From: Candidatus Marinacidobacterales bacterium
GTDB taxonomy: Bacteria > Acidobacteriota > Vicinamibacteria > Marinacidobacterales > DATDRI01
Length of the DNA: 64,000 nucleotides
Direction of reading: 5' to 3'
Assembly: GCA_965226495.1 (NCBI GenBank)
Contig: OZ245365.1
Span: 5,529,783-5,593,782 of the forward strand
Below, piece after piece: positions 812 through 62,108 of this stretch. Position numbers and translations under genes: made by a program. The notes under the pieces were generated by a model. That model searched no databases. It saw only the letters and a list, made by a program, of their open reading frames with translations, and was not told the DNA's origin. Each line of letters opens with the position of its first letter. Positions within the stretch are counted from its first letter, which is position 1.

Positions 812-836
812 TAGTTGCTTACCTTACCCTCACGCC

Positions 837-918
837 GACCCTCTCCCCAAGGGAGAGGGAGAAGATCAATTGCCCTCACCCCATCCCTCTCCCAGAGGGA
901 GAGGGAGAATTTTCAGGG
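837..918 (+). repeat. Two tandem GC-rich stem-loops, CTCTCCC-caa-GGGAGAG (841-857) and CCCTCTCCC-aga-GGGAGAGGG (885-905); the second is followed by AGAATTTTC
   Basis: Read directly from the sequence. Both are perfect inverted repeats with 3-nt loops in the divergent purM/996 intergenic region. On the + strand the second looks like an intrinsic terminator/attenuator (hairpin then U-run). Confidence 0.5.
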
Positions 919-5100: not shown

Positions 5101-5381
5101 GTCTGCCCACCGACGGTCGGAAGGAGCGCATCGGGCCGTTCCCGTTCGATGATGGGTTCGACAAACTTGCCGTTTAGAGGCTCGATATAGGTGCGGTCGG
5201 CGAGCCCCGGATCGGTCATGATCGTCGCCGGGTTCGAGTTCACGAGGATGACCCGAACCCCTTCGCTACGCAACACCTTCACTGCCTGCGTCCCCGCGTA
5301 GTCGAACTCGGCGGCTTGACCGATGACGATCGGGCCCGAGCCCACCACCAAAACGCTTCCGATACTCTTGTCTCGGGGCAT
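2160..5381 (-). CDS. carB: Carbamoyl-phosphate synthase large subunit
   Basis: 1073 aa. Two ATP-grasp halves, N-terminal [25 protein letters not shown], and an MGS-like C-terminus. Unambiguous CarB homology by eye. Confidence 0.97.
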
Positions 5382-7783: not shown

Positions 7784-8466
7784 GCTCTTTCTACCCACCT
7801 CTAGAACCGACTCCCGCAACACCCACAAGAATCGTCCGGGAAACTCACCTCTCGGGAAAACCGGCGGCCGCTAGTGGTTGGATCGCGCTGGCGAGTGTCG
7901 GCGCGCTGTTCTTGGTCTCCGCGATCTATTGGACGGATTTTCTCGGGCTCACTTCACAGCTCGCCGCAACGCCGGAAATGGTCTTCGACCGCAACGAGTA
8001 CTGGCGACTCCTCACCGCCATCGGCACGCATGCGAACTTTCAGCACTTGCTGAGTAATGCCCTCGTTTTCGGAATCTTGAGCTACCTGCTCTACGGCTAT
8101 TTTGGTCCCGTCGCTTATCCGGTGCTCGCAATAGCGGGAGGTGTCGCGGTCATGGCCGTGTCCTTGTCGACGTATCCACCGATGACGATCCTGGTGGGCG
8201 CTTCGGGAGTCACGTATCTGATGGCGGGTTTTTGGCTCACGCTGTATCTTTTCGTCGAGCGACGGTTTTCGCCTGTGAAAAGACTTCTGCGCTCGATAGG
8301 ATTCAGCCTCATCGTATTGATGCCAACGGTATTCGAGCCGACGGTGAGCTACCGCACGCACTTGTTCGGTTTTGCAGTCGGTATGGTGCTCGGGCTGGGT
8401 TATTTCCAGTTCAATAAGGTAAGCCTGCGACGTGCCGAGCGCGTCGAGGTCGATCTCGACGACTAG
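7780..8466 (+). CDS. Rhomboid-family intramembrane serine protease
   Basis: EYWRLLTAIGTHANFQHLLSNALVF, GASGVTYLMAG (GxSG catalytic Ser) and HLFGFAVG (catalytic His), with six TM helices. GTG start at 7780 overlaps the thiO stop (gcGTGAgc). The track N-terminal extension overlaps thiO in another frame and is Arg/Ser-rich. Confidence 0.7.
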   Translation: MSSFYPPLEPTPATPTRIVRETHLSGKPAAASGWIALASVGALFLVSAIYWTDFLGLTSQLAATPEMVFDRNEYWRLLTAIGTHANFQHLLSNALVFGILSYLLYGYFGPVAYPVLAIAGGVAVMAVSLSTYPPMTILVGASGVTYLMAGFWLTLYLFVERRFSPVKRLLRSIGFSLIVLMPTVFEPTVSYRTHLFGFAVGMVLGLGYFQFNKVSLRRAERVEVDLDD

Positions 8467-8506
8467 TAGAGCCGTCAGCTGTCCCGCAGCCGCTCGTCGG
8501 CGAAGG

Positions 8507-8535
8507 GACAAGCCGTGGGGGTGGGGCCCCGCGGC
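8507..8535. repeat. Copy 1 of the dispersed GC-rich motif cGTGGGGGTGGGGCCCCGCGgcac
   Basis: Near-identical to the reverse complement of 49813-49845 and similar to 49899-49930 and 60448-60470. It sits in a convergent intergenic region (rhomboid stop 8466, hypothetical stop 8540). Confidence 0.6.
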
Positions 8536-8539
8536 ACTA

Positions 8540-9160
8540 CTAGAAGTAGAACCGGAGCTCGTTCTCGCGGACGCTTCGTAACGAAGTGGACAGCTGCTCC
8601 AGCAGTGCCACCGCCTGGCTGCGATACATATCGATCCTCTCCATCCGTCGCTGATCCTTCGGGTCACCACTCTCGAGGTACGACTGGCGTAACTCAGCCA
8701 ACCGCCCCTCCGCTTCTTCCAAACTCAATGCAACGGAGATGAAGACCATGAGGTCGAGCTGACGTCGACTGAAGCCTCGACTCTGCCAAACCAGATCTTC
8801 GCGTAAGAGCGCTTGCTGTACCCGCAGGCTGCGTTCGGGATCGAACCCCTCGGCCACTTTCTGTAAGTATGCGGTCGCCGATCGAGTCAGCCGAGGCACG
8901 AGGCCATGCGCCTGCTCGAGAAAGGGACACGGGTCGACTTGGCTCGCCAAAGGTTCCTGAAGGCCGCACCGCCACGCCGTGGTCGGAAGATCCGGGGTAT
9001 CTTCGCTACCCGGACTCCCTGGGGTCGAAGTACCACGCGCTCGTACAGATGTAGGCACAATCCCACACCAGATGAAGGAGACTAAGGCCAGCATCGCCGC
9101 GCCCCTGGCTATGCCGGGGACAGCTAACCTTTTGTCTTTTAATGGGTTGACCTTCATCAC
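8540..9160 (-). CDS. Hypothetical protein with N-terminal signal/TM segment
   Basis: 206-aa ORF. Strong RBS (GAGGAGG) 8 nt before the ATG. Hydrophobic segment AAMLALVSFIWCGIV. No recognisable domain. Confidence 0.45.
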   Translation of the reverse strand: MMKVNPLKDKRLAVPGIARGAAMLALVSFIWCGIVPTSVRARGTSTPGSPGSEDTPDLPTTAWRCGLQEPLASQVDPCPFLEQAHGLVPRLTRSATAYLQKVAEGFDPERSLRVQQALLREDLVWQSRGFSRRQLDLMVFISVALSLEEAEGRLAELRQSYLESGDPKDQRRMERIDMYRSQAVALLEQLSTSLRSVRENELRFYF

Positions 9161-9312
9161 CCCACCTCCTCAGGTTGTGTCGGGAACGTCCTTGTACGTC
9201 TTTACTAATGTACATAGGCAAATTGGATGCCAGGAATGGGGGAAAATGAGCCGACGGGGGGACGTCCAAACTAGGGTTGTGCCAAGGGGTCGACGTGCGC
9301 AGGACGGCGGAC

Positions 9313-13406: not shown

Positions 13407-13502
13407 TGGCGGAGAGGGTGGGATTCGAACCCACGTGCCCAGTTATTAACCGGACAAGACGCTTTCGAGGCGCCCCCGTTACGACCACTTCGGTACCTCT
13501 CC
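13407..13502 (-). tRNA. tRNA-Ser (anticodon CGA), class II with long variable arm, CCA encoded
   Basis: Reverse complement folds as a cloverleaf: GGAGAGG acceptor stem; D-arm CCG...CGG; anticodon stem GGCGC/GCGTC with loop CTCGAAA (U33, anticodon CGA, A37); long variable arm; T-arm GTGGG-TTCGAAT-CCCAC; CCTCTCC-G-CCA. Confidence 0.9.
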
Positions 13503-14666: not shown

Positions 14667-16775
14667 ATGTCTTGGACCCTCTTCACTGCGAACATTCTCG
14701 TCAAAGGATTTGTTGTCCTGGGAGTGGCTTCTCTGATGACCGTCGCACTGAGACAGGCCTCGGCGGCGACGCGGCACGTCGTTTGGGCGTTGGCGCTGAT
14801 CAGTCTTCTGGCCTTGCCTTTCTTGTCTTCGGCCTTGCCCACGTGGCAGCTGCCGCTGCCGGTAATGTTCTTGCCGGCTACGCCTTCACCCGACACCCTT
14901 GTTCCTGAACGCGGCGTCGTTGCTGCGGCCCCGACCACGACCGTTCGACCCAAACGCAACGTGTCGCCCTCTACTGAAACGCGGCCGTCCCCCTCCCAGC
15001 GTCCCGCACCGGCCGGTGATCGCACCGGCTCGACTCTGGCGACCATTGGTTGGCAAACCTGGGTCCTGGCGATCTGGCTCGCCGGATTGGCGCTATTCGC
15101 TTCGCGCATCCTCGTTGGCTTGGTTCGAAGCCGCCATGCCGTGCGCTCGGCGCATGCGATCAAAGATCCCTCGTGGAAGCTTCTGTGTGAAGAAATCGCA
15201 GATAAGTTTGGGATCTCGCAAAGGGTCAGGCTGCTAGAAAGCCCTCGTGCCTCATTGCCTGTGACTTGTGGGTTCTTTCGTTCCTCGGTGCTCCTACCGG
15301 AAAACGCCAACGAATGGACGGCGGAGCGGCGGCGGAGTGTGTTGCTTCATGAGATGGCTCACGTGAAGCGTCGAGACTGCCTCGTCCAGTTGTTCGCGCA
15401 ACTCACCTGTGCTGCACACTGGTGCAACCCGGCTGTTTGGTTCGCGGCAAGAGAGTTACGGCGCGAGAGCGAGCGAGCCTGCGACGATCTGGTCTTGCAC
15501 GCGGGTACCCGCCCTTCCGATTATGCGCACGACCTTCTCGACATGGCTCGGGTATTGACCATGACCCCGACTCCTACCCTGGCCGCGGTCACGCTCGCGC
15601 ACCGTTCAAGGCTCGAGGAGCGACTCCTGGCCATTCTGAATCCCAAGCTCCCGCGGCGAGCCCTGAGTCGCCTTTCCGTCTCGTTAGCCACGCTGGCAGT
15701 CGTTCTCTTCGTTCTCCCATTGGCGACGCTCGTGCCGTCTGCAAAGGCCAGAGAGACATTGCGACCCCACTCGCCGAACCCGCTACTACTCTTAGAAGAG
15801 AGTGCGTTGGAAAATAAAATGAGCGAACGGGTCCGTTTGCAGGGGCGGGAAACGGACGGAGGGATCCAAACGCTTTCCGAAGTGGAAACAAAGGAGCAGG
15901 ACGTGGACTCGGATCGCGACCGTCAGGTGAACGTTCGCGACGTCGATGACGATGGTGACGACGACGATGAGCGAGAGCGTGTGGACGAGCGCTTGTTGAT
16001 CCCGCTAATGGAAGCACTCTCCGATCCGGAACCGGCGGTTCGAGAGCAAGCGGCGGAGGTGCTTGGCGACCTCGAAGACGAAAGAGCGGTCGAGCCCCTC
16101 ATGGCAGCCGTCACCGATGAAAATGAGGACGTGCGAGCGCAGGTCATTTGGGCGCTCGGAAACATGGAAGATCCTCGAACCTTCGAAACCCTCCGTACCG
16201 CACTTCGCGATGAGAGCGAAGAAGTCCAGGAGAGCGCGATCTGGGCTCTTGGGCAACTCGAAGACCCACGGTCGATCGACGCCTTGACCGAAGCGCTCAA
16301 ATCTGCGAATCCCGACATCCGGGAGACGGCCGCCACCTCTCTTGGAAGGATCGAGGACCCTCGCGCGATCGGTGCATTGGAGAGCGTGATCCACGACGAA
16401 AGCTCCGACGTCCGAGAGCAGACCGTCTGGGCACTCGGCATGATCGAAGATCCCGGCTCGGTGCCGGCTTTGAAGGAGGCGCTCCAGGATGAGAATCCTG
16501 ACGTCCGTGAGCAGGCCGCTTGGGCGCTCGGCAAAACGGAAGATCCGAGCGCGCTCGATGCTCTCGCGACCGCAGTAAACGATGAGAGTCCCGATGTCCG
16601 TGAACAAGCCGTCTGGGCAATGGGCATGATCCAGGATGCCCGCTCGGTAGACGCCTTGATCGTTGCGCTCAAAGATCAAGAACCCGACATCCGCGAACAG
16701 GCCGCTTGGGCGCTCGGCATGATCCAGGATTCCCGCGCCGTCGACCCTCTGATCGCCGCCGTCACCGATTCCTAA
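14667..16775 (+). CDS. BlaR1-like M56 metalloprotease signal transducer fused to acidic linker plus about 9 HEAT (PBS-lyase type) repeats
   Basis: N-terminal TM helices; M56 motif SVLLHEMAHVKRRDCLVQL (HExxH); more TM segments; acidic stretch DVDDDGDDDDERERVDE; then about 31-aa repeats (DPxVRxQAAWALGxIxDxRAVxxLxxALKDE). It ends at TAA 16773-16775. Confidence 0.8.
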   Translation: MSWTLFTANILVKGFVVLGVASLMTVALRQASAATRHVVWALALISLLALPFLSSALPTWQLPLPVMFLPATPSPDTLVPERGVVAAAPTTTVRPKRNVSPSTETRPSPSQRPAPAGDRTGSTLATIGWQTWVLAIWLAGLALFASRILVGLVRSRHAVRSAHAIKDPSWKLLCEEIADKFGISQRVRLLESPRASLPVTCGFFRSSVLLPENANEWTAERRRSVLLHEMAHVKRRDCLVQLFAQLTCAAHWCNPAVWFAARELRRESERACDDLVLHAGTRPSDYAHDLLDMARVLTMTPTPTLAAVTLAHRSRLEERLLAILNPKLPRRALSRLSVSLATLAVVLFVLPLATLVPSAKARETLRPHSPNPLLLLEESALENKMSERVRLQGRETDGGIQTLSEVETKEQDVDSDRDRQVNVRDVDDDGDDDDERERVDERLLIPLMEALSDPEPAVREQAAEVLGDLEDERAVEPLMAAVTDENEDVRAQVIWALGNMEDPRTFETLRTALRDESEEVQESAIWALGQLEDPRSIDALTEALKSANPDIRETAATSLGRIEDPRAIGALESVIHDESSDVREQTVWALGMIEDPGSVPALKEALQDENPDVREQAAWALGKTEDPSALDALATAVNDESPDVREQAVWAMGMIQDARSVDALIVALKDQEPDIREQAAWALGMIQDSRAVDPLIAAVTDS

Positions 16776-49776: not shown

Positions 49777-49812
49777 CGGTGAATCAGTGCGCGCTCACTC
49801 TTCCATTCGTGG

Positions 49813-49930
49813 CGCGGGGCCCCACCCCCACGCCTCTCGCTTCGCTGGCGCTGCGCTCGGGCTGAGGGCTCCGCTCGGGCCGGGCTCGCTCCTTCATCAA
49901 CGCGGCGGGGCCCCACCCCGGCCGCCGTCG
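49813..49930. repeat. Two tandem divergent copies (49813-49851 and 49899-49940) of the GGCGAAGCGA...GTGGGGGTGGGGCCCCGCG motif, in reverse orientation
   Basis: + strand GCGCGGGGCCCCACCCCCACGCCTCTCGCTTCGCTGGCG and GCGGCGGGGCCCCACCCCGGCCGCCGTCGCTTCGCCGGCA. The reverse complement of copy 1 is nearly identical to 8507-8535. Lies between the MFS stop and the acyl-CoA synthetase start. Confidence 0.6.
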
Positions 49931-49975
49931 CTTCGCCGGCAAGCGGCTTCGCGACAGCTGACGGCTCCTCGCAGA

Positions 49976-50008
49976 GGGTGCAGTGAATCCGTAGGCACCC
50001 TCTGGTGA
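49976..50008. other. Perfect 10-bp inverted repeat CAGAGGGTGC-N13-GCACCCTCTG
   Basis: Read from the sequence. 47 nt downstream of the MFS stop on the minus strand. Not followed by a U-run in either orientation. Confidence 0.5.
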
Positions 50009-50054: not shown

Positions 50055-51336
50055 TCACCGGTCTTGAAACGTTTCGTCGGAGCGGATCCCGAGCCAGAGA
50101 AGAGCGGCGATCCAACTCACCACAGCGGCGCTTCCCAAGGCGAAAGACCAGCCGAACCAACTAACCAGCAAAGGGACCAAGGGTGTACAGATGACGCCAC
50201 CCAAGTTGGTCCACATGTTCATCACTCCGCTTGCCGAGCCCGCATGGCGCCCCGAGACGTCCACGATGGACGACCAGTAGGCGCCCTCGGTGAGCTCACC
50301 GAATCCGAAACACGACGAAAGCGCGAGGACCGCGTGCCCGGTATTGGCACCGATCACGAGTGTAATGCCGGATAGCGTCATCCCGATGAGGCCCACCCAC
50401 CTTCTACCCCAACGTCGTCCGATGCGAATCGACAAGCGGTCGGTAATGTGTCCCCCGACCGGCGCCGCGATCCCGCCCACGATGAAGGGCATGCTCGCGA
50501 AGAAACCGCTTTCCAGTATCGTGAACCCTCGCACGTCGATCAGATACAAGAAAACCAGAATACGAAATATAGAAGACGTAGCCGTAGCAGAAGTAGCTTA
50601 TCGAAAGGAGGAAAACGTTCTTGTTCCTGAACAATAGCCACGGATTCGCTGCGGTGGGCGTCGAAACGGTGGTTTCTTCTCCACCTTGGGAAATGATCGC
50701 TAGCTCTCCGCGCGTCACGGCGCGGTGATCCTCCGGTCGCTCGGTGGCGTACCAGCGGTACAACACGGCGATCAAGAAGGCGAAACCGGCGGCCACGTAG
50801 AACGCGTTACGCCACCCTACTGTCACCATCAACGACGAAATCACGGGCGGCGTAAAGGCGGAACCGATCGATAGCCCGCCGATCAAAAGAGCGAGCGGGA
50901 AAGCTCGCCCGTTCGAAGGAAACCAGTTTGCTACCGCCCGGGCCGCTACCGGATAAGTGGGTGCTTCCACGACGACCCCCAGGAGGAAGCGCAACACGAG
51001 CAAAGAAACTAGCGCGGCGAACCCGCCGGGAACGAGCAGACCGGGAACCAACCCGCTCAAGACGGTGAAGATTCCCCAGAAGAAGGCCGCTCCCCATAGA
51101 ACCCGCCACGCCCCGAAACGGTCCCCAATCCAACCGGCCGGAATCTGGCAGATGGTATAGCCGATCATGAAGCTGCTGAAGACCCAACCCATCTGCTGTT
51201 CAGACAGGTCGAGCTCGGGCATCATGAACGCCGAGGCAACGGAGATGTTCATCCGCTGCAGATAGCTGACGAAGCTAAACCCGACCAAGAGGGCCAGGAT
51301 CTTCCACCGAACTCTGGAAGCCCTGGAAGGGGACAT
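50055..51336 (-). pseudogene. MFS transporter with an apparent +1 frameshift around 50575 (or sequencing error)
   Basis: N-half ORF (51336-50404) has TM1-6 and ends ...YFCYGYVFYI then nonsense. C-half ORF (50549-50055) resumes ...IFRILVFLYLIDVRGFTILESGFFASMPF... in the +1 frame (TTG/ATA region). Together they make one 12-TM MFS. Confidence 0.65.
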
Positions 51337-58659: not shown

Positions 58660-60246
58660 ATGGCAAAAAGCTACGACGTCATCGTCATCGGTGCGGGACA
58701 CAACGGCTTGGTGCACGCGGCCTATCTCGCAAAAGCCGGCAAGAAAGTTCTGGTGTTGGAACGTCGGCATCTCGTCGGCGGCGCCACCGTCACCGAGGAG
58801 ATCTACCCCGGTTTCAAGTACTCGGTTTGCTCCTACGTCGTGAGCCTTCTCCGACCGGAAATCATCGAAGACCTGGACCTTGCTAGCCACGGACTTCAGC
58901 TTCTTTCTCTCGACGGCACCTTCACTCCTCTTCCTAACGGCGACTACCTCGCCCGTTGGGGTGATCATGATAAGACGCGCCAAGAGCTGATCCGTCACTC
59001 CCGAAAGGACGCCGAGGCTTACGACCAGTTCGGAACGTTGATGTACCACCTTTCGCGGGCAGTTCGGTCCATGCTTTCCACGGTGCCTCCCGATCCCACC
59101 TCTTTCAAACCGTCCGATCTCGCCGGACTTGCACGAATCGGACATCAATTTCACGGCCTGGGAGAGGAGCGTCTCTACGATCTCACCAAGCTCATGACGA
59201 TGAGCTCCGTCGATTTCCTCGACGAATGGTTCGAGTACGAGCCGTTGAAGGCGACTATGGCTGCGAGCGGTATCATCGGTACGTTTCTCGGTCCCCGCTC
59301 GCCGGGAACGGCCTACGTCCTCCTCCATCACTACATGGGGGAGATCGACGGTGTCTTTCGTTCTTGGGGATTTCCGCGGGGGGGCATGGGTTCGGTCGCC
59401 GAGTCCATCGCTTCGTCGGCGAGAAGCCTCGGCGCTGAAGTTCGCACCGAAGCTCCCATCGCTCGTCTCCTCGTCAAGAATGGCAAGGCAGAAGGCGTGG
59501 TGCTCGAAAGCGGTGAGGAGATCCGTGCGCGAGCCGTCGCCTCGAGCCTGGATCCCAAGCGGACCTTCTTGAAACTGATCGAACCGAGCGATCTTGACTC
59601 CGATTTCGCGGAATCCGTACGTCGCTTCAAGATTCGTGGCTCTTCTGGAAAAGTGAACCTGGCGCTCGACGAGCTTCCCAACTTCACCTGTTTGCCTGGC
59701 GACGGCCCGCATCTCCGCGGATCGATCTCCATCAGTCCGAGCATCGACTACTTAGAGGAAGCCTACGACGACGCCAAGTACGGAGATTTTTCGAGAAAAC
59801 CGTACATGGACATCCTCATTCCCTCTGTAATCGATCCATCGATGGCCCCACCGGGAAAGCATGTGATGTCGATCTTCGTGCAATACGCCCCCTACCATTT
59901 GAAGGAAGGTACTTGGGAGGAAAAACGCGAAGCGTTCGGTGACGCCGTCGTGAATACGCTCAGTGAGTACGCGCCTAATCTAAAGAACTCCATTCTTCAT
60001 CGACAAGTGCTCACGCCTTGGGATCTCGAGCAGAAGATCGGGCTCACCGAAGGGAATATCTTTCATGGCGAGTTGACTATGGATCAACTCTTTTTCCTCC
60101 GACCCGTCCCCGGTTGGGCGAAGTATCGCACCCCTATTCGCAACTTCTATCTCTGCGGATCGGGAGCTCACCCAGGTGGGGGCGTGATGGGCTCACCGGG
60201 TAAGCTCGCCGCCCAAGAATTGCTAAAGGATTGGGAAAGCCTGTAG
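58660..60246 (+). CDS. FAD-dependent oxidoreductase, phytoene-desaturase (CrtI) family, paralog 1
   Basis: MAKSYDVIVIGAGHNGLVHAAYLAKAGKKVLVLERRHLVGGATVTEE (Rossmann GxGxxG) and the CrtI-family C-terminus ...GSGAHPGGGVMGSPG. Confidence 0.8.
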   Translation: MAKSYDVIVIGAGHNGLVHAAYLAKAGKKVLVLERRHLVGGATVTEEIYPGFKYSVCSYVVSLLRPEIIEDLDLASHGLQLLSLDGTFTPLPNGDYLARWGDHDKTRQELIRHSRKDAEAYDQFGTLMYHLSRAVRSMLSTVPPDPTSFKPSDLAGLARIGHQFHGLGEERLYDLTKLMTMSSVDFLDEWFEYEPLKATMAASGIIGTFLGPRSPGTAYVLLHHYMGEIDGVFRSWGFPRGGMGSVAESIASSARSLGAEVRTEAPIARLLVKNGKAEGVVLESGEEIRARAVASSLDPKRTFLKLIEPSDLDSDFAESVRRFKIRGSSGKVNLALDELPNFTCLPGDGPHLRGSISISPSIDYLEEAYDDAKYGDFSRKPYMDILIPSVIDPSMAPPGKHVMSIFVQYAPYHLKEGTWEEKREAFGDAVVNTLSEYAPNLKNSILHRQVLTPWDLEQKIGLTEGNIFHGELTMDQLFFLRPVPGWAKYRTPIRNFYLCGSGAHPGGGVMGSPGKLAAQELLKDWESL

Positions 60247-60447
60247 CAACTATGTGTGTTGATCGCCCCAGGGTCCCAGTGAACTACCGTCCCCGCCGGA
60301 GGGCAACGTGGCCAAGACGGCCCGGCAGGGCCGCCGGCCGGGAGGAATTGACTCATGAATTACACGGTCAAGGGAACCGGCCGGGTTTTTCGCCCGAGCG
60401 AAGCCTTGAAACGATGTCGTAGTCGCGAAGTCGACGGAGCATCAAGG

Positions 60448-60470
60448 CTTGGGGGTGGGGCCCCACTCGC
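60448..60470. repeat. Copy 4 of the GTGGGGGTGGGGCCCC motif (cttGGGGGTGGGGCCCCactcgc), preceded by gcgaagtcgacgg
   Basis: Shares the palindromic core GTGGGGCCCCAC and the upstream GCGAAG..CGACGG flank with the other three copies. Confidence 0.55.
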
Positions 60471-60500
60471 ATTAATCAAAGATTGGGAAGGCCTGTAGCC

Positions 60501-62108
60501 GTGAGCACGAACCACGATGTCATTATTATCGGCGCAGGACACAACGGCCTCGTCACCGCGGCCTACCTAGCCAAGGCCGGCAAGAAGGTCCTGGTCCTCG
60601 AGCGACGAGACATTGTCGGCGGTTCGGTGGTCACCGAGAAGTTCGCGCCCGGCTTCAAGGCCTCCCCGACGACGGACCTGTGTGGTCTTCTTCTTCCCCA
60701 GGTTGTCCGTGAGTTGGATCTAAAGAGTCACGGTCTCGAGCTTCTTCCCGTGAACCCCGCAGTTTTTCTACCTCTTGAAGACGGTAGTCATCTCACGATC
60801 TGGCGCGAACGAGAGAAGACGCTCCGCGAGATCGAGCGTCACTCGTCTGCCGATGCGAAGGCGTATCCGCGTTTCGCCAAGCTCGTTCAGAGCCTCACGT
60901 CGTTCATGCGACCCCAGCTTTCGCGCCCCGCGCCGAAACCCGGCAGCGGGAGCCCAGGTGACCTCTTGGAGTTATTGAGGCTCGGATGGGGTATGCGAAG
61001 TCTGGGTGCCAACGACATGCATCAACTTCTCCGCGTCCTGCCGATGTCGGTAGCGGACTGGGTCAATGAGTGGTTCGAAGGAGATGGCTTGAAGGCAGCG
61101 TTGGTAGCACGCGGCATCGGCGGCGTGTTTCTGAGCCCCCGAGACGCGGGCAGCGCCGCCGTCTTCCTCTACCACCATCTGGGACGACCGGATTGGCCTC
61201 TCGTGTCTTGGGGATTTCCTCGTGGCGGCATGGGCGGCGTGACCCAGGCGCTTGCAAGGGCTGCTAAAGCGGCGGGCGTCGAGGTTCGCACCGGCACCTC
61301 TGTCGCCCACGTCATCTTGAAGAACGGTCGAGCCACCGGCGTCGCCCTCGATAACGGAGATGAGCTCACGTCTAGACTCGTCGTTTCCAATGCCGATCCG
61401 CACACCACGTTCCTGAAACTCGTCGAGCCCCATGAGCTCGAAACCGAGTTCATCGGTCGTGTCAAGGCCATTCGTTACCGAGGCGTCGTCGCCAAGATCA
61501 ACATGGCCGTTTCCGAGCTCCCTAATTTCTCTTGTCTTCCGGGCAAGGAGCCTGCCGCTCATCATCAAGGCCTGATCCAGATCGGAGCCGAGATCGATTA
61601 CTTGGAGCGCGCTTTCGACGACGCGAAGTACGGTCGCTTCTCGTCCAAGCCCTTCCTTCAGGCAACGATACCGTCATTGACTGATCCCAATCTAGCCCCT
61701 TCCGGACAGCACGTCGTGTCGGTTCTCATGCAGTACGCTCCCTACCATCTCCGTGAAGGGACCTGGGACAATCGAAGAGAAGAGCTAGGTGACGTGGTGG
61801 TCGACACACTGAACGCGTACGCTCCGAACTTGAGGCAATCGATTCTCCATCGTGAGGTACTGACGCCGCTGGACTTCGAAACAAGGTTTGGATTGACAGA
61901 AGGTAATCTCCATCAAGGAGATCTCGCTCTCGACCAATTTCTTTTCATGAGGCCGGTGCCCGGCTGGGCACGCTACCGGACTCCCGTTCCCAACCTCTAC
62001 CTCTGCGGTGCTGCAACTCACCCCGGCGGTGGCGTCAGCGGTGCCCCCGGCTACAATGCTAGCCGTCAGATCTTGAAAGACTGGGGAACGATCGAAGCGA
62101 ACCGCTGA
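60501..62108 (+). CDS. FAD-dependent oxidoreductase, CrtI family, paralog 2 (tandem duplicate)
   Basis: VSTNHDVIIIGAGHNGLVTAAYLAKAGKKVLVLERRDIVGGSVVTEK. Roughly 55-60% identical by eye to paralog 1 along its full length. GTG 60501 is preferred over the track TTG 60483. Confidence 0.8.
   Translation: MSTNHDVIIIGAGHNGLVTAAYLAKAGKKVLVLERRDIVGGSVVTEKFAPGFKASPTTDLCGLLLPQVVRELDLKSHGLELLPVNPAVFLPLEDGSHLTIWREREKTLREIERHSSADAKAYPRFAKLVQSLTSFMRPQLSRPAPKPGSGSPGDLLELLRLGWGMRSLGANDMHQLLRVLPMSVADWVNEWFEGDGLKAALVARGIGGVFLSPRDAGSAAVFLYHHLGRPDWPLVSWGFPRGGMGGVTQALARAAKAAGVEVRTGTSVAHVILKNGRATGVALDNGDELTSRLVVSNADPHTTFLKLVEPHELETEFIGRVKAIRYRGVVAKINMAVSELPNFSCLPGKEPAAHHQGLIQIGAEIDYLERAFDDAKYGRFSSKPFLQATIPSLTDPNLAPSGQHVVSVLMQYAPYHLREGTWDNRREELGDVVVDTLNAYAPNLRQSILHREVLTPLDFETRFGLTEGNLHQGDLALDQFLFMRPVPGWARYRTPVPNLYLCGAATHPGGGVSGAPGYNASRQILKDWGTIEANR

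Follow-up and report, generated by a model that had tools for sequence, protein, structure and literature searches.

A probable family of REP/BIME-like, multi-hairpin mosaic elements in the intergenic DNA of Vicinamibacteria-like Acidobacteriota

Repetitive extragenic palindromic (REP) sequences are imperfect, GC-rich hairpins of about 25 nt, which combine with other short modules into bacterial interspersed mosaic elements (BIMEs) and which, in the REP-RAYT (REPIN) systems, are accompanied by a REP-associated tyrosine transposase (RAYT). They are extragenic yet transcribed, often lie a few nucleotides from stop codons, reach high copy numbers and turn over between relatives, while their sequence remains conserved at the level of the family. 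All of these properties, the transposase gene set aside, recur in a repeat that is present in four copies (A to D) within a 64,000-nt stretch of DNA from a Candidatus Marinacidobacterales bacterium (contig OZ245365.1, positions 5,529,783 to 5,593,782), here called the window. The copies are true members of a structured, modular repeat family, which probably consists of mobile or duplicative mosaic elements with several hairpins, apparently undescribed and located in the intergenic DNA of Vicinamibacteria-like Acidobacteriota. The extragenic copy number of the repeat and the length of its GC-rich hairpin H2 lie within the limits by which REPs are recognised (for the palindrome, 20-40 nt). The element works like a REP/BIME element yet departs from that class in several of its defining characters, as set out below; in addition, the unit is longer, at 75-120 nt with two to three different hairpins, and a 13-nt apex sequence is kept across many species and two phyla.

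Closest in taxonomic terms are the 'atypical secondary structures' associated with class 3 TnpA(Y1) genes in Acidobacteria and Planctomycetes, of which Solibacter usitatus has about 600 copies (PMC6006769). The Y1 enzymes form an unusual class, whose hairpins flank the Y1 gene and have CnGA at their 5' foot (PMC6006769). These hairpins resemble the present repeat in their phylum, their REP-like nature, their high copy number and their non-canonical form without GTAG (PMC6006769), but no CnGA is evident here at the foot of H2, in a comparison that is made by description and with Solibacter rather than with Vicinamibacteria. The likeness points to the existence in Acidobacteria of a Y1 enzyme that could mobilise hairpins of this kind. 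The enterobacterial repetitive intergenic consensus (ERIC, or IRU) and Correia (NEMIS) repeats are similar in another way, since they are structured repeats of about 100-150 nt within transcribed intergenic regions and show insertion polymorphism; they are co-transcribed, fold in the mRNA and affect mRNA processing or stability in an orientation-dependent manner. However, their long, imperfect palindromes carry terminal inverted repeats, duplicate a TA target and occur in either orientation, whereas the elements described here are asymmetric, are without such terminal repeats and are found mostly in sense. Finally, the palindrome-associated transposable elements (PATEs) derived from IS200/IS605 share the top-strand asymmetry, the direct orientation of hairpins and the lack of a regular target duplication, and the precise empty sites described below are compatible with peel-and-paste transposition. 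In contrast to PATEs, no conserved target tetra- or pentanucleotide could be defined, and no parental insertion sequence (IS) with matching ends was found.

The earlier note on this DNA, made from its letters alone, knew of no described element with this sequence, and this agrees with what was found. No Rfam 15 family matches the element in the window, where the gathering score is reached by one tRNA only, and exact-sequence and keyword searches of the literature gave no description of it. In the E-value mode of Rfam there are weak matches, far under the thresholds, to C/D-box snoRNA and small RNA (sRNA) models. A C/D-box snoRNA identity was rejected, the matches coming from UGAUGA...CUGA-like tails and being judged chance; for instance, the tails at 49855-49903(-), CACUGAUGA...CUGA, match archaeal and eukaryotic C/D-box snoRNA models with E = 0.05-0.9, probably by chance.

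What is the evidence that the four repeats belong together? The 13-mer core, GGGGTGGGGCCCC, has four exact matches in the window, one within each copy (Table 1), compared to a chance mean of 0.24 in dinucleotide-preserving shuffles, and a count of four was reached in 0 of 100 of these. With two mismatches allowed, no further convincing copy of the core was found in the window. A covariance model built on 56 related copies, and run over the whole window with filters off, returned exactly the same four copies, with E-values of 3e-18, 9e-18, 2e-11 and 7e-6; the fifth-ranked match (E = 0.055) lies within coding sequence. The exact search and the model together bear out the places at which the earlier note had found its four copies, and all four are, as it had claimed, intergenic. 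The spacer of copy A separates a rhomboid-protease gene from a gene convergent with it. Copies B and C share a spacer between two minus-strand genes, for a major facilitator superfamily (MFS) transporter and an acyl-CoA ligase, and copy D has a CrtI-like oxidoreductase gene on either side, the two being in tandem.

The unit that is repeated was defined by repeat detection and by alignment, which gave a likeness of about 80 nt, and was completed from copies in public data. It follows one plan, which reads from 5' to 3' as an optional hairpin H0, AGCCNTCAGCTGTC, hairpin H1, a linker, hairpin H2 and a purine-rich tail. Within the subfamily of the window, H0 has the form TAGC-AGGSYGC..loop..GCRSCCT-GCGCGAGG, the constant stretch that follows it is AGCCNTCAGCTGTC, and the tail after H2 is CAYTRATGAAAGAGCGAG. 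In H1 the outer stem, GTCSC/GSGAC, surrounds an internal loop rich in G and A as well as a small inner hairpin, for which the GCGAAGC type is frequent. H2 is a hairpin of 24-28 nt with a stem of 9-10 bp, in which a variable 5-bp lower stem is followed by gGGG/CCCC and a 6-nt loop, G-U-GGGG. The core to which attention was first drawn is the top of this hairpin, with the apex gGGGG-U-GGGG-CCCC. The repeat is thus larger than the roughly 35 bp first attributed to it, with an actual unit of about 75-120 nt; copy A alone fills a 73-nt spacer and copy C reaches a further hairpin. The perfect 12-bp palindrome that had been placed in the core, GTGGGGCCCCAC, occurs in copy D only, whereas A, B and C carry GTGGGGCCCCGC, and just GGGGCCCC is palindromic in all four. 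Similarly, the upstream flank GCGAAG is found in A, B and C, whereas copy D has GACGGAG. A closing helix between a 5' TCAGC and the 3' CTGAT tail was considered and rejected, as it comprises just 4 bp without covariation.

The folding of the unit is reflected in the way that its copies differ. In the 56-copy alignment 96% of the cells in the two hairpins are standard pairs, compensatory changes on both sides are present at 8 of 16 pairs, including the outer stem and first inner pairs of H1, and the observed values were reached by 0 of 500 column shuffles; when the partner is slid by 1-3 columns, pairing falls to 34-47%. Among all the 145 copies collected, 75 show 5 bp of complementarity in the lower stem of H2, compared to 10 of 145 when the 3' arm is taken from another copy, and the arms of this stem have dozens of different sequences, even inside one genome. 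The lower stem of H2 therefore varies freely provided that pairing is kept. The apex, on the other hand, is invariant. Thirty-eight units of the Vicinamibacterales subfamily were found by the 5' module alone, the core not being used in the search, and 31 of them have the exact 13-mer, the others being cut in or near the loop or having a one-base indel; no point substitution in the 13-mer was seen among the 38.

How widespread is the family? A genome scan with the pattern GCGAAG, 9-14 nt and the core, taking one genome per species, gave at least 117 loci. The labels among the matches listed are Acidobacteriota for 80, mostly Vicinamibacterales, and Myxococcota (Kofleriaceae, Polyangiales and Labilithrix) for 19, with 13 unclassified; the few listed matches from other phyla lie inside genes and are probably due to chance. 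A single metagenome-assembled genome (MAG) has at least 10 loci, the highest number among the matches listed. A metagenome scan for the subfamily of the window added 55 further loci, and a scan of viral contigs gave 0 matches. The closest labelled relatives of the window belong to Vicinamibacteria and Candidatus Marinacidobacterales. The density of copies is about 1 per 16-20 kb in the sequences examined and 4 per 64 kb in the window, and relatives picked by gene and not by repeat have 3 copies in 62 kb. The family is therefore multi-copy in many Vicinamibacteria-like Acidobacteriota, with a differently folded relative in Polyangia. In the Myxococcota form the CCCC of the 13-mer has its pairing partner in a GGGG farther downstream, with a covarying hairpin in between, and next comes a second hairpin, GGGG...CCCC; since this Polyangia form folds otherwise, it is a relative and not the same unit.

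The earlier note had also proposed that the conservation of single copies be followed among related strains. Orthologous loci of relatives, which were retrieved through the flanking proteins, show that all three window loci are polymorphic and that presence differs. At the B/C locus, where the window has two copies (C and B), a 93% relative (L174) has H0 and a C-like copy with no B, a relative with a 7.07-Mb sequence (L178) has one copy, which is B-like and immediately precedes the ribosome-binding site, and in a third relative (L175; ligase 80% identical) the synteny of the MFS and ligase genes is kept around a 73-nt spacer without the element. At the D locus the two CrtI-like genes are 4-6 nt apart in five relatives (74-88% identity), compared to a spacer of 254 nt in the window. 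This spacer is occupied by a mosaic insertion between direct repeats (Table 1), and a GC-rich module of the insertion (GGCCCGGMGGGCCGCCGGCCGGGAGGAATTG) recurs beside a core element in a metagenomic locus (L173, about 5235-5275). The insertion also adds a duplicated end of gene 1, within which the listed ORF 60483-62108 begins at a TTG codon. The homologue P0230 is 6 residues shorter than this ORF, and homologues and empty sites place the true start of gene 2 at the GTG at 60501, so that the insertion has caused a gene start to be called too far upstream. At the A locus the spacer of an 87% relative (L184) measures 2 nt (TAG-CC-CTAG), that of an 86% relative (L176) holds another combination of modules, without H2, and that of an 82% relative (L177) holds a copy that is 97% identical to A, with flanking coding DNA 85-87% identical to that of the window and third codon positions 67-72%. 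The same pattern extends to the S10/str ribosomal operons of Vicinamibacterales, where the spacers fusA-rpsJ, rplV-rpsC, rpsC-rplP and rplB-rpsS hold a full, half or degenerate unit in some species and elsewhere measure 2-9 nt. With such empty sites in relatives (spacers of 2-6 nt or 73 nt), copies have therefore been gained, lost and remodelled between genomes of 74-93% protein identity.

Units are also found in multiples and in parts. Neighbouring copies form direct tandems, with periods of 51-120 nt, at 12 loci or more, while inverted pairs number 3 among the matches listed. Incomplete units are frequent and have their breakpoint inside the H2 loop, such that left half-units end ...GGGGGTGG and right half-units begin (G)TGGGGCCCC; of the 38 GGGGCCCC sites outside full cores, 22 are explained by the latter. 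For instance, in one locus (L022, ~2330-2880) seven left half-units are arrayed in tandem, one about every 90 nt, each made of the 5' module and GGTCGTGGGG before it diverges; a single full unit closes the array, just upstream of a start codon. Terminal inverted repeats are lacking: the ends of the unit are not complementary, the 5' end being constant and the 3' arm of H2 variable. Duplications differ in length, from no more than 3 nt at copy A to some 23 nt at copy D, and a long target-site duplication was rejected as a general feature, the 23-nt case being single. Direct tandems, half-units and the lack of terminal inverted repeats point to a strand-specific process that recognises sequence and structure and acts at the hairpin apex, and the half-units that are broken inside the H2 loop suggest cleavage or recombination at that spot.

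The position of the copies relative to genes is characteristic. Of 16 units with H0, 14 have the upstream gene's stop codon at most 22 nt away from H0, and in 5-6 of those 14 this codon overlaps with the TAG that the element itself carries (TAGCAGG). In the Vicinamibacterales subfamily, the commonest spacing between the core and the start codon downstream is 15-17 nt. Copies are located before rpsJ, rpsC, rplP, rplL, accC and pheT, including between accB and accC and between pheS and pheT, such that they lodge in very short spacers after stops or before starts, in essential operons among others. Both flanking genes are co-oriented with the copy in 49 cases and both are opposite in 10 (p = 3e-7), and the lower stem of H2 has 24 G-U pairs versus 6 A-C pairs (p = 0.0014). 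The strand that carries GGGGTGGGGCCCC is therefore the one that matters. The four window copies are all in sense to their upstream gene and are split 2:2 between the strands, although GC skew is uniformly negative, which for these four copies favours a link to transcription over one to replication direction. Clustering of the ORFs within 2.5 kb gave no recurrent protein family or transposase near the copies; the commonest neighbouring family is present at 6 of the 117 loci among the matches listed, and the element is thus not the leader of a particular gene. A gene-specific cis-regulatory RNA is likewise not what is seen, since copies accompany no single gene family and their presence differs among orthologous spacers. 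Motif scans at the copies found no sigma-70-type promoter and no hairpin-plus-U-tract terminator, the U-tract being sought on either strand.

If the family is not mobile, what else could it be? The main rival is a host cis-acting RNA element, such as an RNA-binding-protein site or a processing signal, that was recruited to 5' leaders and intercistronic spacers, or kept there, to tune translation or mRNA stability and that would have spread mainly by selection instead of transposition. It would make sense of the sense orientation, of the preferred 15-17 nt between core and start codon and of the placement before the ribosomal-protein, accC and pheT genes, and also of stems that covary around an invariant apex and invariant unpaired nucleotides. 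A copy that is 97% conserved when flanking third codon positions are at about 70%, and GNRA-type loops in several inner hairpins, belong on the same side. Such an element is nevertheless unlikely, as the neighbouring genes are unrelated, close relatives do without it at the same spacers with no visible replacement, and tandem arrays, half-units and degenerate copies are common. In addition, the D insertion split genes that are 4-6 nt apart in every relative examined, and no Rfam family matches. A more specific role, that of a non-canonical intrinsic terminator or attenuator with a conserved sequence, like motifs reported from other GC-rich bacteria, is improbable even though H2 is very stable, GC-rich and right after stop codons and copy A sits between convergent genes. 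There is no U-tract on either strand and the terminator scan is blank at the copies; moreover, copies inside the S10/str operons, accB-accC and pheS-pheT argue against strong termination, and relatives with spacers of 2 nt or 4-6 nt manage without the element. Inspection by eye also raised a k-turn, a G-quadruplex or a recoding signal (a hairpin after UAG) as conceivable readings, with neighbours of diverse kinds and with stop codons that are sometimes double.

Mobility of another kind, in the form of a miniature inverted-repeat transposable element (MITE), a non-autonomous derivative or relic of a DDE transposon, was among the suggestions of the earlier note. The small size, multiple copies, intergenic position and insertion polymorphism fit, as does the direct duplication that flanks the D insertion. 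However, the suggestion is not borne out, given that terminal inverted repeats and a constant target-site duplication are missing: the 3' arm of H2 changes independently of a 5' end that is constant, repeats in the flanks do not exceed those of controls in length, the duplication ranges from at most 3 nt at A to about 23 nt at D, and the strong strand asymmetry is unexpected for an element with terminal inverted repeats. Direct tandems and breaks in the loop, together with the lack of both long flank repeats and terminal inverted repeats, do not fit a cut-and-paste DDE transposon, and a MITE is accordingly very improbable. The remaining rival, that of a chance or compositional G/C-run motif in a GC-rich genome, has the 59% G+C of the window to its credit and can practically be dismissed: the observed count of the 13-mer was reached by no shuffle, the likeness spans about 80 nt that include covarying stems, and related copies elsewhere number in hundreds. 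The two outcomes that the earlier note had named as fatal to its proposal, a motif no more frequent than chance and copies no more alike than their G/C runs, are thus both contrary to what is found, with 4 matches versus 0.24 expected and with a shared sequence of about 80 nt whose stems covary.

The preferred reading, a mobile or duplicative REP/BIME-like family, has several observations to contend with. The resemblance to REP/BIME elements that the earlier note proposed holds in that the repeats are dispersed, intergenic, hairpin-forming, modular, multi-copy and present or absent between relatives, but it does not hold for the conserved foot and the inverted pairs. The GT[AG]G (or CGTC) foot of REP/REPIN sequences is not conserved here, GTAG being found in one subfamily only (CALFMR01/DASZOV01); the foot of H2 is ACAG, GAG, GTTATC or others depending on the subfamily, the window copies have AAG, GAG or GG before the stem, and the N in GCC-N-TCAGC is not a conserved G. 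In place of the inverted or alternating pairs of REPINs and BIMEs there are direct tandem units. A constant target-site duplication was not found, the longest common substring of the flanks being that of the control. No Y1, RAYT or other transposase was found in the 1.3 Mb examined with phmmer (an approximate E. coli RayT query) and an HUH...Y regular expression, although this negative is weak because such genes, as is the case for RAYT genes, are usually single-copy. The tandem and half-unit features are also compatible with ordinary palindrome instability and unequal recombination, and the same operon position in several species, together with strong conservation of a whole sequence, could mean a host function. 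The orientation bias and the G-U asymmetry alone do not separate a role as RNA from one as top-strand single-stranded DNA; the orientation counts come from heuristic gene calls and count orthologous loci of different species separately, and the test of replication direction covers the four window copies, the GC skew of 8-kb loci being confounded by gene strand. Finally, the scanned loci were selected by patterns that themselves contain GCGAAG and the core, which partly accounts for the conservation of both; the covarying stems, the other modules and the apex of the 38 units do not depend on these patterns.

How might a mobile, REP/BIME-like family of this kind propagate? Its units would be copied by a trans-acting enzyme that is specific for sequence and structure, most plausibly an HUH/Y1 (RAYT-like) enzyme acting on single-stranded DNA, for which the invariant H2 apex, on the top strand, would be the recognition site. 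The elements would be co-transcribed with the flanking genes, in whose transcripts they may form stable hairpins that are not terminators and are tolerated or mildly useful. Possible effects at the RNA level include a barrier to 3' exonucleases, a processing site or an uncoupling of neighbouring cistrons. E. coli REPs stabilise mRNAs and are often close to stop codons, and by analogy an mRNA-stability hairpin is the RNA-level effect that we infer and favour. A more far-reaching idea, which is put forward as a doubtful one, gives the apex GGGGG-T-GGGG-CCCC the same meaning in both phyla, either as the recognition and cleavage site of a single-strand enzyme that copies units into the non-template strand or as an ancient protein-binding RNA motif. 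In the enzyme form a predicted single-strand-specific enzyme, common to Vicinamibacteria-like Acidobacteriota and Polyangia, would target the displaced non-template strand of highly transcribed operons. Such copying would explain a sense orientation that appears independent of replication direction, the enrichment in ribosomal-protein and housekeeping operons, the missing target duplications, the loop-broken half-units and the direct tandems. In the alternative form an ancient motif found across phyla would bind a protein and organise the processing of operon mRNA.

Vicinamibacteria are among the most abundant soil bacteria and, to our knowledge, almost nothing is known about their non-coding DNA. 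The family appears to be a major part of their intergenic space, and the element occurs even between ribosomal-protein genes that abut directly in related species. It provides a defined and easily searched marker for strain typing and for spotting assembly breaks, and it probably leads to gene calls that are over-extended or mis-started (60483 versus the true start at 60501). It also represents a tractable case of how essential operons tolerate selfish hairpin elements. An enzyme that recognises the apex, if one comes to light, could define a REP-like system that is new and lies outside Proteobacteria.

The modules of the four window copies are collected in Table 1. Copy A is a complete unit, which folds exactly according to the unit plan with a fold energy of -39.3 kcal/mol. 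Copy B lies in tandem with C, 91 nt downstream and in direct orientation, and the end module that follows it is also found after a copy in another locus (L171). Copy D has a decayed lower stem in H2 and a long alternative hairpin upstream, and copies that resemble it are present in L126, L171 and L176.

Table 1. Units, hairpins, end modules and duplications at the four window copies (window coordinates; bits are covariance-model scores)
Feature	Position	Strand	Description
Copy A	8467..8539	+	Whole spacer, from the rhomboid gene stop codon (8464-8466) to gene 8540-9160(-); 85 bits
Copy A hairpin H1	8481..8509	+	GTCCC-GCA-[GCCG CTCGT CGGC]-GAA-GGGAC; minimum-energy fold
Copy A hairpin H2	8512..8535	+	9-bp stem GCCGUGGGG / CCCCGCGGC, 6-nt G-rich loop; core 8518-8530
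Copy B	49802..49883	-	Shortened H1; H2 49811-49834 (core 49816-49828); 55 bits
Tail and end module after copy B	49777..49801	-	GAATGGAAGAGTGAGCGCGCACTGATTCACCG; abuts ribosome-binding site and start of acyl-CoA ligase gene
Copy C	49893..49971	-	AGCCGTCAGCTGTC, H1, H2 (49902-49925; core 49907-49919), start of tail; 83 bits
Copy C hairpin H0	~49972..50005	-	AGAGGGTGC..loop..GCACCCTCT; fits H0 module of metagenomic copies
Left duplication copy	60225..60247	+	Direct repeat of ~23 nt; end of gene 1 including TAG stop codon
Mosaic insertion at D	60248..60477	+	Repeated module 60319-60350, then copy D; between CrtI-like genes
Copy D	60389..60479	+	Different subfamily (AGTCGCGAAGTCGACGGAGC type); core 60452-60464; 32 bits
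Right duplication copy	60478..60499	+	Native sequence restored upstream of the true GTG start of gene 2 (60501)

The genes that flank these copies have features of their own. Those that end beside copy A (8464-8469 and 8537-8542) have a double in-frame stop, TAG TAG, the second TAG of which comes from the ends of the element (TAG...CTA). In the 82% relative (L177), which is the one with the 7.07-Mb sequence, a gene for an IS605-type TnpB (OrfB_IS605 or Cas12f-like; 8073-9242(-)) lies between carA and the rhomboid locus and is absent from the window, and the DAO gene beside this insertion appears truncated. The TnpB-encoding IS was considered as the parent of the element and rejected, the ends of the IS being unrelated to the repeat. 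At the B/C position the MFS gene is wholly absent from the relative with the 7.07-Mb sequence, and the MFS transporter of the window (50055-51336(-)) is called as two genes, of 310 and 108 aa, which suggests a frameshift or pseudogene.

In the MAGs of Vicinamibacterales, tandem heptamer or octamer repeats are often found directly upstream of elements in the same spacers. These include (GGGATTA)n in L037, L055, L062 and L064, (CAGAAGC)n in L019, (GTCGACA)n in L081, (GGCAGGTA)n in L044 and a (GAAGTTA-like)n repeat in L034. The heptamers recall the short tandem heptanucleotide (STRR) repeats of cyanobacteria. A second, unrelated hairpin repeat is present at window positions 824-909, between ORFs 257-814 and 981-1619, as two tandem 40-nt copies of CCCTCACSCCRWCCCTCTCCC-loop-GGGAGAGGGAGAA; one copy occurs in the orthologous spacer of L177 (2455-2475) and none in any other locus examined. 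The window also contains a tRNA-Ser(CGA) gene at 13407-13502(-) and three in-frame coding repeats of 93 nt (16404-16775) at the end of ORF 14667-16775, the L177 homologue of which has HEAT-repeat domains.

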